Shown here: piece by piece, positions 3,337 through 17,722 of the stretch | Layout of the letters: every line of letters begins with the position of its first letter | Position numbering within the stretch: position 1 is the stretch's first letter | From: a virus | Virus record (IMG/VR): IMGVR_UViG_3300038443_002312 | Span: 1 to 64,000 of that record | Strand: one strand, 5' to 3' | DNA: 64,000 nt | The notes under the pieces: model-generated | Databases searched by the model: none | The model's input: the letters and a program-made list of their open reading frames with translations, nothing else | Told to the model about the DNA's origin: nothing | Translations under genes and position numbers: made by a program

Positions 3337-4139
3337 CAGACCCCGGCCGGGTCGACCCCGACCGCCCCCCGGACCGTGGCTTCCCGTGCCGCCATCGCCG
3401 CCGCGAACCGCAGGGCGGCCGGCCGCGGGACGCCCGCCGCCGCGCACGCCCCCAGGCACGCCAGGACCATGTCCCCGCACCCGGTCGGGTCGGCGGCCTC
3501 GGCCGGCGCCGCCGGGACCGTCACCGCCTCCCCGCCGGCCCCGTGGTGGGTGAGCCCCCGGGCCCCGTCGGTCACGACCAGTTCGACCGCGTGGGCCCGC
3601 CACCAGTACGGCGGCCTCCCCCGGGACGCGGCCTCCCACTCGGCCCGGTTGCACTTGACCAGGCTCGCCCCGCGGTAGGCGGACCAGTCGCGGCCGCGGG
3701 CCGGGTCGACGAGGACGGGGACCCCGGCCCCGGCGGCCGCCGCGAACACCCCGCGGAGGAGTTCCGCGGAACACGTCCCGAGCCCGTGGTCGGCCACCAG
3801 CACGGCCCCGACCCGCGCGGCCAGGGCCGCCGCCCGGGCGGCCACGCACACCGGCCGGGCGTCCACGTCCCGCCGCCCGACCATCGCCCCGCCGACCCAG
3901 AACCGCTCCCGGAGGGCGGTCGGGAACCCGGCCAGGCTGACCTGGGCCCCGAGCGCGGCGGCCATGGCCGCGACCGCCCCGGCCCCGCCCGGCCGCTCGA
4001 CCCGCCCGGTCTCCCGGATGACGGGCACGCCCGGGGCCTCCGGGGCCTCGCGCTCGACCACCCCGGTCACGTCCCGGTCCGTCAGGTGGTCGCCGACCAC
4101 CAGGACCCGGGCCCCCGCGAACGTCTCCCGCCAGCCCAT
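3336..4139 (-). CDS. PfkB-family sugar kinase, HldE/RfaE heptose-7-phosphate kinase-like domain
   Basis: VLVVGDHLTDRDVTG..REAPEAPGVPV..RPGGAGAVA resembles the RfaE N-terminus; VLVDP, VKCNRAE and DPTGCGD PfkB signature. Confidence 0.8.
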   Translation of the reverse strand: MGWRETFAGARVLVVGDHLTDRDVTGVVEREAPEAPGVPVIRETGRVERPGGAGAVAAMAAALGAQVSLAGFPTALRERFWVGGAMVGRRDVDARPVCVAARAAALAARVGAVLVADHGLGTCSAELLRGVFAAAAGAGVPVLVDPARGRDWSAYRGASLVKCNRAEWEAASRGRPPYWWRAHAVELVVTDGARGLTHHGAGGEAVTVPAAPAEAADPTGCGDMVLACLGACAAAGVPRPAALRFAAAMAAREATVRGAVGVDPAGV

Positions 4140-4231
4140 GCCCCGCCCCCGGAACAACACCGCCCCGCCCGGACCGGGCGGGGCGGCGGCGTAACGACCG
4201 GTCGCCACCGGTCGGCCCCTCGGAGGCCCGG

Positions 4232-4690
4232 CTACTCCTCGCAGGTCGCGGCGAACATGAGCGTCGGGGTGCCCGGGCTGGTGCACTCCAGTTGGGCCGA
4301 CTGGGCCCCGGGGATCTTGATCTCCTGCCCCGGGTAGAGCATGTCGAGGATCGCCTGCTGGGGCTGCAACTCCCACCACAGCCCGCCGTCGGACGGGCTG
4401 GTCGGCTCGACCGACGCGTTCGCCCCGCAGGTAGTCTGGATCGTCTCCGAGTCCGTCGGGTCGTTCTTCCCCGGGGTGGCCCCGGTGAAGGTGCCGAAGT
4501 TCGCCGTCGACCGCGTCAGCCGGATCTTGACCGGGGTGTCCGTCCCGCCGGCCGGCTGCTTGCCGAACAGGCGGAGGCCCTTGATCAGGACCCGCTGGTT
4601 GGCCGCGGCCTTGATCTGGAGCAAGGACTTCGCGGTGCTCGCGACCAGCGCGGCTTCCCCGCTGTTGACGTGCCAGAGAACGCCGGCCAT
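4232..4690 (-). CDS. Hypothetical structural protein
   Basis: MAGVLWHVNSG..., balanced composition, lies in the morphogenesis module. Confidence 0.6.
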   Translation of the reverse strand: MAGVLWHVNSGEAALVASTAKSLLQIKAAANQRVLIKGLRLFGKQPAGGTDTPVKIRLTRSTANFGTFTGATPGKNDPTDSETIQTTCGANASVEPTSPSDGGLWWELQPQQAILDMLYPGQEIKIPGAQSAQLECTSPGTPTLMFAATCEE

Positions 4691-12524: not shown

Positions 12525-14336
12525 TCAGTGAGCGCCGTTGGCACCGGCCCCGAGTCGCCCGATCCCGCGGTACAGGTCGCGGACGAGGGTCAGATTGGGG
12601 ACGGCGTCCCCGGGGAGGAGTAGGTCGGTCGGGCGGACCGACGGCGGGCCGGCGAGTTGCTTCCGCGGGGCCCGGGACGTGGTCCGGGACCCGGCGGGCC
12701 CGACCCGGCCGGCGGGGCCGGTCCGCGAGGCGGGGCCGGTCCGCTGGGGCTGGTCGGGGCCGGGCGTACCGCCCGGCTGGCGACTGCCGGCCGGGCTCGA
12801 CCCCGGCGGCGGCTTCCCTCCCGGCCCGGAACTGCCAGAGGTGGAAGAAGGATTCGCAGTAGTATCGGGGACCCCCTCGCCGAGGTCAATACCAAGTTTC
12901 TTGGCGAGCACCCCGGCGACGTCGGTCCCGATCAGGAGGTCGCCGATGTCGGCCGGGAGCGGCGGGAGTTTCCGCCGCTTGCGGGCCTCGTTGAACGTCA
13001 CGTACCCGTACCGGCAGTCGAGGTCGTGCTCCCGCTCGGCCTGCTCCTTGTCGTGGATCGGCGGGGTCGGGACGTGGACCTCGATGTCCCCGCCGAACGC
13101 CGGGGCCAGGTCGTGTTCGAGGGCGTCGGCCAGGAGTTGCAGGATCGGGGCGACGGCCTGGTCCATGAAGCTGATCATGGCCGCGTAGTACGCGGCGTAC
13201 GCCCCGGGCTCCTGGAACCCGCACGCGATCGGGGTGACCCCGAAGAGGCCGAGGATGTTGTGCCCGATCGCCGTCCGCCCGTTGGCGTAGTCGAGTTCGC
13301 GGACCGACCGGTCGGCGTCCGCGATCTCGACCCCCTTCGGCAGGCGCATGTGCCGGCCGACGTTGTCCGGGCCGCCGAGCCGGCTGCGGATGATCGCGTC
13401 GAACCGGTCGGACTCCTCCCGGGTGGGCTCCTCGGCCGCGTTCTGCATCTGGAAGATGTACCCCGGGCGGAGGGTGTTCTTGAACCCGGCCCAGGTCGCC
13501 CGGTCCAGCTGGTTGCCGACGTCGATCCACAACTGGCCGGCGTCCATCGGGGAGAGGGCGTCGGTCAGGAAGCACACGTGCGGCCACCGGATCGGCATGA
13601 CCTCCCGGCCGTCCACGACCCCGCCACTGATCATCAGGTTCATCCACGACACGTCGCCGAACGGGTCGGCGTCCGGCCGCATCCCGCCGAACGTCCCGAC
13701 CGGCATGACCCGGTACGCCCCGTTCGGGTACTCGCGGGCGTCCGGCGGGACCGGGAAGGTGATCCCGGTCGGGATGATGTACAACTGCCGCGGCGTCCCC
13801 CGCCGGTCGAACCGGCGGACCCCGTCCCGCCGGACCCACATGAGCGTGGTCCCGGTCGCGCACGACTGCTGCGCGTGCTGGAACAAGAACTGCCCGCGGG
13901 TCATCCACGGGTTCGGCCGGCGGAGCAGGCGGTTGAGGGGGAAGTCCGGCGGGAGCGGGACCGAGTCCCCGCCGTCGTGGTTGGACGCCTGGACCGTCGC
14001 CTTGAAGTGGTCGTAGACCTCGGTCGGGACGAGCCCCTTCCGGTGCGCCTTGTGGGCCCGGTGCAGGATGTCGGCGGCCCGGGCCCCGGTCGCGAAACAG
14101 ATCGGCTGGGCCTTCGCGCACACCCGGGCCACCGCCCGGACGGCCGCGAACGTCCACCCGGTCACCAGGCGGGATTCTACGAAGTGGTTGGACGCCCAGC
14201 CGCCCGGCCCGCCGCCCGCCACGTACAGCGGGAACTGGCTCGGGACGGCCGTGTTGAAGCCCTTTTCGGCGGCCGAAACGGGGGCGGACGGCCCCTCGGG
14301 GCCGTCCCGCGATTGCAACCAGCCTGCGACGTTCAT
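12525..14336 (-). CDS. Phage portal protein
   Basis: LNRLLRRPNPWMT..F, ALSPM, ILGLFGVTP, VTFNEARKRRKLPPLP; sits upstream of protease and capsid. Confidence 0.85.
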   Translation of the reverse strand: MNVAGWLQSRDGPEGPSAPVSAAEKGFNTAVPSQFPLYVAGGGPGGWASNHFVESRLVTGWTFAAVRAVARVCAKAQPICFATGARAADILHRAHKAHRKGLVPTEVYDHFKATVQASNHDGGDSVPLPPDFPLNRLLRRPNPWMTRGQFLFQHAQQSCATGTTLMWVRRDGVRRFDRRGTPRQLYIIPTGITFPVPPDAREYPNGAYRVMPVGTFGGMRPDADPFGDVSWMNLMISGGVVDGREVMPIRWPHVCFLTDALSPMDAGQLWIDVGNQLDRATWAGFKNTLRPGYIFQMQNAAEEPTREESDRFDAIIRSRLGGPDNVGRHMRLPKGVEIADADRSVRELDYANGRTAIGHNILGLFGVTPIACGFQEPGAYAAYYAAMISFMDQAVAPILQLLADALEHDLAPAFGGDIEVHVPTPPIHDKEQAEREHDLDCRYGYVTFNEARKRRKLPPLPADIGDLLIGTDVAGVLAKKLGIDLGEGVPDTTANPSSTSGSSGPGGKPPPGSSPAGSRQPGGTPGPDQPQRTGPASRTGPAGRVGPAGSRTTSRAPRKQLAGPPSVRPTDLLLPGDAVPNLTLVRDLYRGIGRLGAGANGAH

Positions 14337-14344
14337 AGCCGGGG

Positions 14345-14373
14345 ATTATCCCCGCCGCGGGCCGTTTGGTCAA
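14345..14373 (-). promoter_or_regulatory. Sigma70-like promoter for the portal operon (probably leaderless mRNA)
   Basis: TTGACC-N17-GATAAT, 8 nt before the portal ATG. Confidence 0.6.
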
Positions 14374-14417
14374 CCGGACTGGTGTTCCGCGGAACGCCAA
14401 CGGGTTGGCGGGGAACG

Positions 14418-14443
14418 AAAAAACCGGGGCCGGGCCCCGGTTT
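14418..14443 (-). terminator. Rho-independent terminator ending the guide-array transcript
   Basis: Minus strand AAACCGGGGC-CCG-GCCCCGG-TTTTTT. Confidence 0.8.
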
Positions 14444-14457
14444 CTGCTGCATACCCC

Positions 14458-14621
14458 CTCGCCCTCACCCGCACCTCATCCCGTCACCCGCGTACCCTCA
14501 CCCCATACCCCTCACCCGCGAACCGCTGAACCAGTCCCACCTCACCCGCGAACCCGGACGCAGTTCCCCTCACCCGATCGGTGCGCCACCCTCGCCCGCG
14601 TGGCGGTGGACCCCTCACCCG
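14458..14621 (-). CRISPR. Mini-repeat array C (~8 units, repeat ~(CG)CGGGTGAGGG)
   Basis: Plus-strand CCCTCACCCG(CG) variants separated by unique spacers, degenerating toward the terminator; non-canonical CRISPR-like. Confidence 0.6.
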
Positions 14622-14729
14622 GTCGCGAGACGTCGTCGAAAAATCGCGGGCCGGCCTACCCGGGTCGCCCCGGATAATCAGCCGGTTACGGGGCCGACTG
14701 GGACCCCGTGCTGGCCTGAGAGTGGGCCA
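14612..14729 (-). ncRNA. Structured guide-RNA scaffold (tracr/omega-like), copy 1
   Basis: Homologous to 16734-16847 with compensatory base changes in two helices and a GNRA loop; ends in the first repeat of array C. Confidence 0.75.
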
Positions 14730-14761
14730 TTGTGTCTCGCGGAACACCCGTCATCGTCAAC

Positions 14762-15066
14762 GCCTCACCCGCGGGATCATGAGCCCTCGCCCGGCTTCCA
14801 CCCGTCTCACCCGACCGACTTTGCGCCTCTCGCCCGCGGGTCCGGTTATGATCCCCTCGCCCGACCGAACCTCTCACCCCTCACCCGCGGGTCTGAGCCT
14901 GTGACCCCTCGCCCGCGACAGTTCCCGGTTCTTCTGCCCCTCACCCGTCGAACCTCGCCCTCACCCGCGGCCCTTCGCGAACTCCTTCCCCTCGCCCGGA
15001 TGTCCTGGGTCTGGTTCTCCCTCATCCGCGACCCCACCCGCCAGCCCATCCCCGCTCTCACCCGCG
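14762..15066 (-). CRISPR. Mini-repeat array B (~12 units, repeat ~(CG)CGGGYGAGGG)
   Basis: Repeat starts near 14762, 14784, 14804, 14827, 14854, 14878, 14906, 14938, 14958, 14989, 15019, 15055; unique spacers of about 10-24 nt. Confidence 0.65.
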
Positions 15067-15068
15067 AC

Positions 15069-16367
15069 TCACTCCTCCTCGTCGGCGAAGACGACCACAC
15101 ACCCCATCTCCTCCAGCTTGTACCGGAGGCTCTGCCGGAACTGGGTCCAATTCCACGGGTGCCCGGCCAGGCACCCGACCGGCGGCCCGCCGTTGAAACT
15201 GCGGGTCGGCAGGGCGGCCACGCGGACGATCCCGCACCGCCACTGCCGCGCCCGGTCGGCGATCCGCCGGGTCCAGGCGTGGTTCCGGGCCTTCTGCCCC
15301 TCCTCGCGCTGGGCCGTGGCCCGGGCCAGGGTGGCCTGGTTGACCGCCCACCCCTTGCCGAACCCCCACGGCCGCCGCGGGCTCCCGCAGTCGCCGCGCC
15401 GCCGCTCCAGGGCCGCCCGGCGGTTGGCCGCGTAGGCCAGGAAGGCCCGGACGTCGGCCGCCCCGAGCGTGTCGGCCGTCTCCGCCCCGTCCGGCCCGGC
15501 CAGCCCGAAGAGGGGCAGGTCGGCCGACGGGTCGCGCCGGCCCTCCGGGACCAGGTCGGTCGCCCCGTCCCGCGGGGTGACCACGAGGGTCCGGGCCGGG
15601 TCCAGGTCCGCGGCCGACCGCGGTCGCTCGTGCGACACGGTGGCGAACAGCTTGCCGTCGACCTCGGACAGGAAGACCGTGCCGAGCTTCCACCCGTCGG
15701 CCCCGTCCCGCAGGGCCTGCCACACCCGCCACCGCCCGCCGTCGAGGTTCTGGGTCAGTTGGAAGGCGACCTCGCCGATGTCCCGGTCCCAGCGCAGGAC
15801 CAGGGCCCGCTTGTCGAGCCGGGGCTTGGCCGTGGCGACCGGGAGGCCGATCCCGCGGCGGTTGAACTGGGCCAGCCCGCGGGCCCCCTGGAGGACCAGC
15901 CAGCCGCGGGTCGCCTGCGGGAACTCCGGGTCCCGGGCCTGCCACGCGGTCTGGAGGTCCCGGCGGGCGCTGTCGTTGACGAACGCGAGCATGGTCGGCA
16001 ACTGGCGGGCGACCTCGGCCCGCAGTTCGTACACCGGGCCCCGCGGGATCTTGACCTGGTAGACCTCGCCGTCGCCGCGCTTGCGCTCCTCGGGGACCAC
16101 GACCTCCGCCGTCGCCTGCCCGTGGGCCAGGGCGGCCAAGACTTTGGCGTTGTTGTTGCTCGGGGTCACCCGGCACTCGTCCCCGGTCCAGGTGATCTCG
16201 GCCCCGGCCGCCCGGGACTCGGCCATCAGCCCGTAGCAGTGCCGCAGGCACGCCCGGTAGGCCCGGACCGACGCCACCACCCGCTTGCGGTCCTCGGCCC
16301 GGTCGGCCGGCATCGCCAGATCGACCCGGAGCGACCGCTGGACGCCTTTCGCCTCTGCTGCCGCCAT
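15069..16367 (-). CDS. Nuclease-dead, C-terminally truncated TnpB/Cas12f-like RNA-guided DNA-binding protein (432 aa)
   Basis: DGKLFATVSHERP..DLDPARTLVVT (RuvC-I position, no Asp); RNHAWTRRIADRARQWRCGIVRVAALP (RuvC-II, Glu replaced by Ala); WNWTQFRQSLRYKLEEMGCVVVFAD; no Zn finger or RuvC-III. GGAG RBS before ATG 16367. Confidence 0.7.
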   Translation of the reverse strand: MAAAEAKGVQRSLRVDLAMPADRAEDRKRVVASVRAYRACLRHCYGLMAESRAAGAEITWTGDECRVTPSNNNAKVLAALAHGQATAEVVVPEERKRGDGEVYQVKIPRGPVYELRAEVARQLPTMLAFVNDSARRDLQTAWQARDPEFPQATRGWLVLQGARGLAQFNRRGIGLPVATAKPRLDKRALVLRWDRDIGEVAFQLTQNLDGGRWRVWQALRDGADGWKLGTVFLSEVDGKLFATVSHERPRSAADLDPARTLVVTPRDGATDLVPEGRRDPSADLPLFGLAGPDGAETADTLGAADVRAFLAYAANRRAALERRRGDCGSPRRPWGFGKGWAVNQATLARATAQREEGQKARNHAWTRRIADRARQWRCGIVRVAALPTRSFNGGPPVGCLAGHPWNWTQFRQSLRYKLEEMGCVVVFADEEE

Positions 16368-16395
16368 GCCGGAACTCCGTGTGCCCCATGACAAG

Positions 16396-16743
16396 CCGTC
16401 ACCCGCGACCGGTTGCCACCCGCATCCCCTCACCCCGCATCCGCCGCCGGAATAGCCCTTCACCCGCGACCTGCCACAGGTCGGTTCCCGTCACCCGCGG
16501 CATCTCCCGCCGATGTTCCCGTCACCCGCAGTTCAGATTGAGCCATCACCCGCTGGCCCGACTGTTCGTCCCCCGATGCTCACCCGTCACCCGCTGGCGA
16601 CCGCTGGGCACACCCCGTCACCCACTGTTCCGAACCTTGCCGTCACCCGCGGCCGGCCATTCCGGGTTACCATCACCCGAGACACCCGAGAGCCAACCGT
16701 CACCCGCGGGCCGGGCACGCCACCCGGATGGGACCCTCGCCCG
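16396..16743 (-). CRISPR. Mini-repeat array A (~12 units, repeat ~(C)GCGGGTGACGG)
   Basis: Repeat starts near 16396, 16427, 16457, 16488, 16519, 16543, 16584, 16615, 16640, 16670, 16697, 16734; period mostly 24-31 nt; unique spacers. Confidence 0.7.
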
Positions 16744-16847
16744 GTCGCGGTGTCAAAGAAAAGTCGCGGGCCGACCTGCCGGGTTGCCCCGGTAATCAGT
16801 CGGTTAGCCGGCCGACTCGGGCCGGCTGTTGGCCTGAAGGTGGGCCA
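16734..16847 (-). ncRNA. Structured guide-RNA scaffold (tracr/omega-like), copy 2
   Basis: Hairpins GGCC-CACCTTCA-GGCC, AGCCGGCC/GGCCGGCT, CCGAC..CCGGG-GCAA-CCCGG..GTCGG, then anti-repeat CCCGCG; begins at the predicted TSS. Confidence 0.75.
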
Positions 16848-16854
16848 CGAACTA

Positions 16855-16883
16855 AATCTATACACACCGACAGGAGTGGTCAA
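16855..16883 (-). promoter_or_regulatory. Sigma70-like promoter driving scaffold/array/dTnpB unit
   Basis: TTGACC-N17-TAGATT about 7 nt upstream of scaffold copy 2. Confidence 0.7.
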
Positions 16884-17272
16884 GGGGCCGGGGACGATTC
16901 TGCCAGAGTGTTGTCAGGGGTGGCGAGCCAGGCGGCCAGGGTGGCGGCCGACAGGCCGACCGGGTAGACGTCCTCGGGCCGCGCGGCCGGGGCGCGGGAG
17001 ACCTGGAGGGCGTGCCGAACCCCGCGGTCGGACACTTTGGCGTCGGGAACGGAGCGGCCGTTCCCGCCGACGACCCGGGCCGCCCGCTCGCAGAACAGGG
17101 GGTCGAGCCCGGGCTCCGGGCCCGGCCGGTTGTGCGGGGCCTTGCGGGCCCACCGCCGCCAGGCGGCGGCCCGGCGGACGGCCCGCCAGTAGCGGGCACT
17201 GAGTTTCCGGAGCAGGCAGAACGTCGCGTAGTCGACGGGGTGGTAGCCCCAGCGGGACTGGTAGGTGGTCAC
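16880..17272 (-). CDS. Hypothetical protein
   Basis: VTTYQSRWGYHPVDYATFCLLRKL...; GGAG RBS. Confidence 0.55.
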   Translation of the reverse strand: MTTYQSRWGYHPVDYATFCLLRKLSARYWRAVRRAAAWRRWARKAPHNRPGPEPGLDPLFCERAARVVGGNGRSVPDAKVSDRGVRHALQVSRAPAARPEDVYPVGLSAATLAAWLATPDNTLAESSPAP

Positions 17273-17649: not shown

Positions 17650-17722
17650 ACCACCCGGTCGGGATCGAACCGACGTGTCACCGATTTGAAGTTCGGTTGC
17701 CGTTCCACTTGGCTACGGGTGG
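17650..17722 (-). tRNA. tRNA-like gene with 8-nt anticodon loop ACUUCAAA (contains UCA)
   Basis: Acceptor CCACCCG/CGGGTGG, D-arm GCC-AAGTGGAAC-GGC, anticodon stem ACCGA/TCGGT, T-arm GTCGG-TTCGATC-CCGAC. Confidence 0.75.

Follow-up and report, generated by a model that had tools for sequence, protein, structure and literature searches.

What two similar, hairpin-rich elements are doing on either side of a single gene is the question raised by the minus strand of a 64,000-nucleotide (nt) stretch of viral DNA, here called the window: positions 1 to 64,000 of the IMG/VR virus record IMGVR_UViG_3300038443_002312, which spans 115.7 kilobases (kb), is estimated to be 71% complete and has a GC content of 73.5%. 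The initial annotation, made from the letters alone, described the two elements as scaffold copies of one functional noncoding RNA whose structure is kept more than its sequence. The locus is a type V-F-like dual-guide system with a dead effector, unusual for its arrays of 12-nt mini-repeats and its duplicated, cis-fused trans-activating RNAs (tracrRNAs) of the CRISPR kind; judged by comparative sequence analysis, the two elements are probably functional, paralogous tracrRNA-like guide scaffolds of a phage nuclease-dead Cas12f-type effector.

The two scaffolds (93–95 nt; 81% column identity in a MAFFT alignment) can be laid out by direct reading of the sequence as three helices, P1 to P3, followed by a tail and a U-rich tract.

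16754–16846, minus strand: scaffold copy 2, tracrRNA-like; covariance-model match of 54.2 bits (E-value 5e-10)
14634–14728, minus strand: scaffold copy 1, tracrRNA-like; covariance-model match of 45.2 bits (E-value 4.6e-8)
16846–16843 with 16834–16831, minus strand: P1 of copy 2, loop at 16842–16835 (8 nt)
14728–14725 with 14716–14713, minus strand: P1 of copy 1, loop at 14724–14717 (8 nt)
16827–16820 with 16813–16806, minus strand: P2 of copy 2, 8 base pairs (bp) and a 6-nt loop
14709–14702 with 14695–14688, minus strand: P2 of copy 1, 8 bp and a 6-nt loop
16803–16799 with 16775–16771, minus strand: outer P3 of copy 2, 5 bp
14685–14681 with 14655–14651, minus strand: outer P3 of copy 1, 5 bp
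16792–16779, minus strand: inner P3 hairpin of copy 2, 5 bp, GNRA tetraloop at 16787–16784
14673–14660, minus strand: inner P3 hairpin of copy 1, 5 bp, GNRA tetraloop at 14668–14665
16770–16764, minus strand: anti-repeat tail of copy 2, 7 nt
14650–14644, minus strand: anti-repeat tail of copy 1, 7 nt
16763–16754, minus strand: U-rich tract of copy 2
14643–14634, minus strand: U-rich tract of copy 1

P1 is a 4-bp stem with an 8-nt loop in both copies, the loops differing at two positions. The helices of the initial annotation are confirmed by this reading, including a P2 of changed sequence and unchanged pairing (four pairs differ, three of them altered on both sides and one passing from C-G to U-G, and none is broken) and a P3 with a GNRA hairpin in each copy, the outer part of which exchanges one A-U for a G-C; pairing in P2 and P3 thus survives every substitution between the copies. 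The common downstream part that it had described is also present, as the 7-nt tail is identical in the two copies and both end, past the U-rich linker, in a 16-nt repeat-like unit (to 16734 in copy 2 and to 14612 in copy 1). Folded singly, copy 1 yields all of the helices, and copy 2 yields P2 and the inner hairpin.

A comparison wider than two copies was obtained from relatives, that is, from homologs of P0001 (the protein encoded between the scaffolds) found by protein-guided searches in seven further metagenomic or viral records with usable flanks; this set excludes the closest protein relatives of the window (58–63% identity), and the contigs of most homologs (P0002, P0003 and others) are not part of it.

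L004/L010: IMG/VR contig
L005: metagenome-assembled genome carrying the 3′ part of an L008-type locus, truncated
L006, L007 and L008: metagenome contigs
L009, L011 and L012: complete phage genomes of 54.6, 208 and 186 kb (IMG/VR and CheckV)

GC-rich and AT-rich phages are both represented. Nine further scaffolds lie beside the homologous genes, one or two per relative (two each in L008 and L011), giving 11 scaffolds from 8 records; the element of the relatives is about 70 nt long and has the same order of P1, P2, P3, tail and U-tract as the window scaffolds in a very different sequence, with a P1 of 4–5 bp closed by an 8-nt loop and a P2 of 7–8 bp closed by a 6-nt loop. The GNRA hairpin is absent from the relatives and would therefore be an insertion into the P3 loop in the window phage. 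Every one of the 11 scaffolds adjoins both a P0001 homolog (within about 2.5 kb, on the same strand) and a repeat array; its placement is not fixed and may be intermediate between the gene and its array, ahead of both, behind the array, or 2.4 kb upstream.

All three helices show strong covariation among these scaffolds. RNAalifold, run on an unguided MAFFT alignment of seven of them, predicts P1 to P3 with double changes in 14 of 16 pairs, and a hand alignment pairs all helices fully. A covariance model built from the 11 scaffolds recovers those 11 only (E-value ≤ 5e-8; next-best ≥ 0.08) from a search space of 110 kb of window and loci plus four whole phage records. In the model-based alignment of the 11 sequences, which was fitted to the model and so favours structure, 84.0% of cells pair (55.3% ± 2.7 in shuffles) and 15 of 17 pairs are changed on both sides; the helices found with the unguided alignment are the same. 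Covariation scores 0.773, compared with 0.214 ± 0.038 in shuffles, none of 500 of which reaches the observed value, and the score falls to 0.08–0.20 when the partners are slid by one to three columns. The view that structure is conserved beyond sequence, first put forward from two copies, therefore holds when homologs are added. G-U or U-G pairs occur at several positions, on the sense strand of the gene only; they would be mismatches on the other strand, which indicates an RNA read in the sense of the gene.

It is highly improbable that the hairpins are cis-regulatory elements of an mRNA (terminators, attenuators or RNase sites) or DNA-level repeats that flank the gene by chance. P3 followed by a U-rich tract does resemble a terminator, a consensus scan flags terminator-like sites inside both copies, and copy 2 occupies the presumptive 5′ leader of the gene; however, a terminator leaves unexplained three covarying helices and a loop of fixed 8-nt length, the position of the scaffold relative to the gene is not constant (upstream, downstream or 2.4 kb away), and the G-U pairs favour RNA over DNA.

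The partner of the scaffold is predicted to be the repeat of the neighbouring array. Within the 8-nt P1 loop of every module, nucleotides 3–8 are complementary to six nucleotides of the repeat, those just before its final one or two G at the spacer-adjacent end; 56 of 60 positions pair over 10 independent modules, a result equalled by 1 of 100,000 permutations of scaffolds and arrays, with L012 scored at 4/6 in this test, where it pairs with a hexamer set one base further from the repeat 3′ end (an earlier, smaller loop test gave 40 of 42 positions, with 6 of 5040 permutations as good). The 3′ tail of the scaffold is complementary to 5–11 consecutive repeat nucleotides immediately upstream of this guide-adjacent hexamer, in runs that total 71 nt over 10 modules (9 of 100,000 permutations as good); in the window this pairing is 6 bp. 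Matched changes are seen at close range as well. The two scaffold–array pairs in the single L008 locus differ in the loop hexamer and, correspondingly, in the repeat hexamer; between the close relatives L011 and L012 the repeat hexamer has changed and the loop has changed with it, pairing being kept. Loop and tail complementarity that covaries with the cognate repeat identifies the scaffold as a tracrRNA-type RNA; that it also tracks the neighbouring repeat across GC-rich and AT-rich phages further argues against cis-regulatory hairpins. One candidate compensation within the window was rejected: set against the C/U difference between the two loops, the G/C difference between the array repeats yields a C-U mismatch.

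The initial annotation had pointed to RNAs of the omegaRNA or tracrRNA kind and to the corresponding Rfam models. The tracrRNA-like character stands, while the match to an existing model does not: Rfam gives no match at an E-value ≤ 1 within 14300–17000, and a tRNA is the only hit at gathering score in the window, so the scaffold would belong to an RNA family that is new and is not covered by a known omegaRNA or tracrRNA model.

The repeats that the window scaffolds would pair with are arranged around the gene as follows.

16855–16883, minus strand: putative sigma-70-like promoter (−35, 17-nt spacer, −10), 9 of 12 consensus matches
16393–16753, minus strand: linker, cis-fused repeat-like unit (16749–16734) and array 2, 12 units in total
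15069–16367, minus strand (frame 15072–16367): gene for the Cas12f/TnpB-fold protein P0001, 432 amino acids (aa), assigned by translation, fold and profile
14762–15066, minus strand: array 1a, about 12 mini-repeat units typified by 14969–14958, beginning 3 nt past the stop codon of the gene
14456–14633, minus strand: linker, cis-fused repeat-like unit (ending at 14612) and array 1b, 8 units in total
14418–14440, minus strand: likely intrinsic terminator of the whole locus, a hairpin rich in GC (stem of 7 bp, loop of 3 nt) with a run of six T behind it

The minus strand between 14456 and 16749 carries 32 copies of a 9-nt core motif, which usually has three more conserved bases in front and is then part of a 12-nt unit: 12 units follow copy 2, 12 lie between the gene and copy 1, and 8 follow copy 1. 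Over the 115.7 kb, 20 of 25 strict matches on the minus strand fall within the locus, as do 0 of 8 on the plus strand. The 12-nt mini-repeat consists exactly of the tail-pairing hexamer followed by the P1-loop-pairing hexamer, the 5′ two-thirds of a normal repeat being gone. Spacers are shortened and irregular, the gaps between cores measuring mostly 10–32 nt (15–32 nt in array 2, where the unit is typified by 16499–16488). Copy 2 stands upstream of the gene and copy 1 begins 340 nt past its stop codon, with an array in between; both are joined to their first repeat-like unit by a U-rich linker of 14–16 nt, in the manner of a natural single-guide RNA (sgRNA).

The relatives, except the truncated L005, have ordinary arrays with 28–29-nt repeats and diverse spacers of about 32 nt. 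Several local features of these arrays were observed. In L011 (3960–4640) at least one spacer is, by eye, markedly GC-rich within an AT-rich 208-kb phage and has no match in IMG/VR, and its composition suggests an origin in a foreign genome; an exact-string search of IMG/VR with one L011 spacer returned the array itself only. Two neighbouring spacers of L007 (3227–3320) agree at all of 32 nt, one repeat–spacer unit having been duplicated in tandem. The L009 array (3990–4280) is broken by duplicated pieces of the phage's sequence, one from the 3′ end of the effector gene and another, 88% identical, from the beginning of an upstream open reading frame (ORF), interruptions which suggest recombination within the array. 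Just downstream of the L009 scaffold (100–300) stands a second, unrelated repeat family of about 29 nt in three copies, the end of which, on the opposite strand, resembles the core of the window mini-repeat.

By its profile alignment and predicted structure P0001 is a nuclease-dead Cas12f/TnpB-fold protein. An AlphaFold2 model built on 23 homologs (predicted local distance difference test score 86.3) matches AsCas12f (E-value 4.6e-13) and TnpB (1.7e-7) in Foldseek, other Cas12 types also matching; Pfam gives a sub-threshold match to the start of the Cas12f1-like TNB domain, and the family profile finds OsCas12f (1e-17), AsCas12f (about 1e-12) and the published nuclease-dead Cas12f (1.3e-5) in the PDB. 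Alignment of the profile to OsCas12f places Thr at the RuvC motif-I Asp and, in P0001, Ala at the motif-II Glu, and the protein ends about 25 residues into the TNB profile, just past the helix that precedes the zinc ribbon, as does the whole family; with this end point P0001 has neither a zinc ribbon nor RuvC-III. The dead RuvC and the C-terminal truncation are family-wide in the family and profile alignments. An exhaustive profile search returned 154 clusters (50% identity) at an E-value ≤ 1e-30 and 588 at ≤ 1e-3, the family clusters being nearly all 360–450 aa long with the same end point; ten longer members gave no zinc-ribbon domain at gathering level. The nearest ESM-Atlas clusters are mostly viral; no homologs were found in GenBank phages or PLSDB plasmids, a 69-member family alignment was too diverse for finding loci, and a closer-clade alignment search of IMG/VR added nothing new. 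Cas1 and Cas2 have no match in the phage record of the window or in three complete relatives, while control genomes match. In L008 (599–1999 and 4177–4776; also in L005) the dead-Cas12f gene and two scaffold–array modules lie between genes for an SNF2-family helicase and BrxB (BREX), past which the ORFs look fragmented; these neighbours place the family in defence-island-like surroundings as well.

The surroundings of the window locus are consistent with a transcription unit of its own. The putative promoter ends about 9 nt before scaffold copy 2, in an AT-rich patch that overlaps the stop codon of the upstream ORF, and a consensus scan finds 2 such sigma-70-like sites in the region (0.1 expected in shuffles); the terminator candidate was read directly from the sequence and is absent from the list of that scan. 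A phage portal gene lies downstream of the locus, a tRNA gene (17650–17722, minus strand) just upstream of it, and another flanking ORF has no family match. Directly upstream of the portal gene and after the locus terminator there is a strong sigma-70-like promoter (14345–14373, minus strand; 10 of 12 consensus matches), so that the portal gene would seem to be transcribed separately from the RNA-guided locus. In L007 (1691–1841) the homologous effector gene has tRNA-Met and tRNA-Ile genes no more than about 100 nt upstream; the system may repeatedly stand next to phage tRNA genes. A 443-aa ATG-initiated ORF (15058–16389, minus strand) overlaps the real gene in another frame; it has no homologs and was set aside as a high-GC artefact, and picking the longest ATG-initiated ORF, as gene callers or readers may do, would mis-annotate the locus (15058–16389 over 15072–16367).

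From transcription, processing and protein binding to DNA binding and biological targets, the following course of events is the one that we infer. The locus is probably transcribed from the promoter at 16883–16855 to the terminator at 14440–14418. The six guide-adjacent nucleotides of the repeat would pair with nucleotides 3–8 of the P1 loop to form a pseudoknot (the short repeat/anti-repeat), and the 5–11 nt upstream of this hexamer would pair with the tail (the long repeat/anti-repeat); the spacer would thus be presented 3′ of the pseudoknot, as in a Cas12f sgRNA and a TnpB omegaRNA. With the repeat cut to 12 nt, the three arrays would hold about 30 short guides (about 10–29 nt), and each scaffold would also be fused in cis to a first guide unit. 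The protein–RNA complex would bind complementary DNA without cutting it, for CRISPR interference (CRISPRi)-like silencing of genes of the host (presumably a planctomycete) or of rival elements; the dead RuvC, taken with the characterised dead Cas12f and TldR systems, makes RNA-guided binding without cleavage the most likely activity. Nuclease-dead Cas12f homologs have been shown experimentally to be RNA-guided DNA binders that work with guide matches of 13–14 bp (PMC13472631), which makes the short spacers of the window plausible as guides. Whether the mini-arrays supply many working guides is an evenly balanced matter; somewhat more tentative is the proposal that the phage carries a multiplexed CRISPRi-like system, midway between a CRISPR array and single-guide RNAs, in which some 30 guides silence many genes of the host or of rival elements during infection.

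Several results weigh against this picture, in addition to the fitting of the pair-count alignment to its model. The folding-energy z-scores are only about −1.9 against shuffles, and in a genome of 73.5% GC thermodynamics alone would be insufficient for the claim. No run recorded as RNA contains the locus. In the prevailing repeat variant of array 2 a C faces a U of the copy-2 loop, leaving 5 of 6 pairs, and both window loops pair at least as well with the variant of the other array, so the pairing gives no sign of scaffold–array specificity within the window; the cis-fused unit pairs with the tail only through a 4-nt bulge. Targets were not found: the window spacers have no matches beyond shuffle level in the 115.7 kb of the phage itself, four phage genomes contain no protospacer for the 32-nt spacers of L009, L011 or L012, and a search of GenBank phages yielded nothing for the L011 and L007 arrays. 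With their irregular spacer lengths and no targets found, the mini-arrays could be decaying remnants.

Two other readings draw on part of these results. In the first, each scaffold would act by itself as a single-guide RNA, comparable to an omegaRNA or TldR guide, and employ just its one cis guide, and the roughly 30 mini-repeat units would be debris of a collapsed array; besides the spacer results just given, the U-rich linker that joins both copies to a repeat-like end and the sequence after it agrees with this, as do the degenerate, shortened repeats also seen at the array ends of L008 and L009, and the dCas12f-sigmaE and TldR systems use chimeric single guides thought to be array-derived (PMC13472631). 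This reading is nevertheless unlikely. The 12 nt kept about 30 times are exactly the two scaffold-pairing segments, which looks like selection and not random decay, and the motif is strand-specific and well conserved; the bulged cis unit pairs with the tail worse than the free units do, and the locus is letter-identical in the parts covered by the (fragmentary) contigs of four further soil or rhizosphere metagenome runs. In the second reading, the scaffolds and mini-arrays would be RNA decoys that soak up a Cas12f-type effector of the host or its tracrRNA, in the manner of an RNA anti-CRISPR. Inhibition of host CRISPR systems by solitary repeats and mini-arrays that phages carry is known from the Racr literature, and the very short repeats, the missing adaptation module and the failure to find targets would fit; however, the locus always comes with its own conserved effector gene from a mostly viral family, the relatives carry ordinary arrays (29-nt repeats, 32-nt spacers) with diverse spacers, and a co-evolving effector and scaffold–repeat covariation within the phage would be unnecessary for a decoy, which leaves this the least probable of the explanations weighed here.

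As guide scaffolds of a dead effector, the elements constitute a new guide-RNA scaffold family absent from Rfam, with a structure supported by covariation and an explicit rule for docking of the repeat, which makes it possible to test directly the RNA partner of a dead-Cas12f family that is largely viral and counts at least 154 sequence clusters. The window represents an intermediate that is rarely seen though discussed, a tracrRNA fused to the first guide and followed by minimal repeat–spacer units, and therefore bears on how omegaRNAs, dual guides, arrays and chimeric single guides interconvert. If the multiplex proposal is true, a 12-nt repeat lets about 30 short guides fit in less than 1 kb without adaptation genes; more broadly, the occurrence of large soil phages that have many guides yet neither a nuclease nor an adaptation module suggests that phages use RNA-guided gene silencing as a strategy. 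A core scaffold of about 70 nt, a 12-nt handle and a 432-aa effector are also of practical interest for the design of compact CRISPRi tools and base editors.

No paper describing this dead-Cas12f family was found in a literature search. Of the nearest described systems, the type V-F Cas12f1 dual guides (AsCas12f, OsCas12f) are the closest by fold and profile homology. In the tracrRNA and CRISPR RNA (crRNA) of Cas12f1 the repeat pairs in two parts, a long stem and a pseudoknot stem of 5–7 bp made by the guide-adjacent nucleotides (PMC11246509); on comparative evidence the tail and P1-loop pairings here correspond to this long and short repeat/anti-repeat layout, and the locus likewise has a separate scaffold RNA gene beside an array and a guide placed 3′ of the repeat. 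The differences lie in the effector, which is nuclease-dead here and truncated before the zinc ribbon and RuvC-III; in the scaffold core, which measures about 70 nt in the relatives and about 93 nt in the window compared with about 200 nt for the Cas12f1 guide RNA (PMC12255294); in the window repeat of 12 nt, with its long stem of 6 bp and two scaffold genes each fused to a first guide; and in the mostly phage-borne family, with no cas1, cas2 or cas4 here. The features of a type V-F immune system, a competent RuvC D-E-D set with zinc ribbon/TNB and the cas1 and cas2 genes, were not found.

A C-terminally truncated dCas12f, mostly linked to sigma-E and using single guides with no tracrRNA detected, was described by Hoffmann et al. 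in 2026, who also briefly mention a CRISPR-linked dCas12f cluster in Bacteroidota in Extended Data Fig. 1 (PMC13472631). These dCas12f-sigmaE systems share with the present family a C-terminal truncation that takes away part of the RuvC site and leaves the Cas12f fold in place, probable RNA-guided DNA binding with short effective guides, and a proposed traffic between arrays and chimeric single guides (PMC13472631). The published systems are chromosomal in Bacteroidota, whereas the family here is found in soil phages with a clear tracrRNA, and neither rpoE nor a helix-turn-helix partner adjoins the locus (a whole-genome rpoE search was not made). The weaker profile match to dCas12f (1.3e-5) than to nuclease-active OsCas12f (1e-17) suggests a separate inactivation event; inactivation thus looks independent of the published dCas12f on profile comparison, though overlap with the CRISPR-linked cluster of Hoffmann et al. 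is possible.

In the omegaRNA of TnpB the guide-adjacent nucleotides pair with a distant 5′ segment to form a pseudoknot (PMC10097598), and the present system resembles TnpB and TldR in its compact TnpB-fold effector, in the predicted pseudoknot from guide-adjacent nucleotides, and in cis-fused scaffold–guide units reminiscent of a natural sgRNA; with TldR it further shares a nuclease-dead state, TldR proteins being partly phage-encoded repressors with short guides. Unlike a TnpB omegaRNA, the scaffold overlaps neither the 3′ end of the gene nor a transposon end, and it would serve about 30 guides instead of one; the fliC or oppF association of TldR is not seen here, and by Foldseek P0001 is closer to Cas12f than to ISDra2 TnpB.

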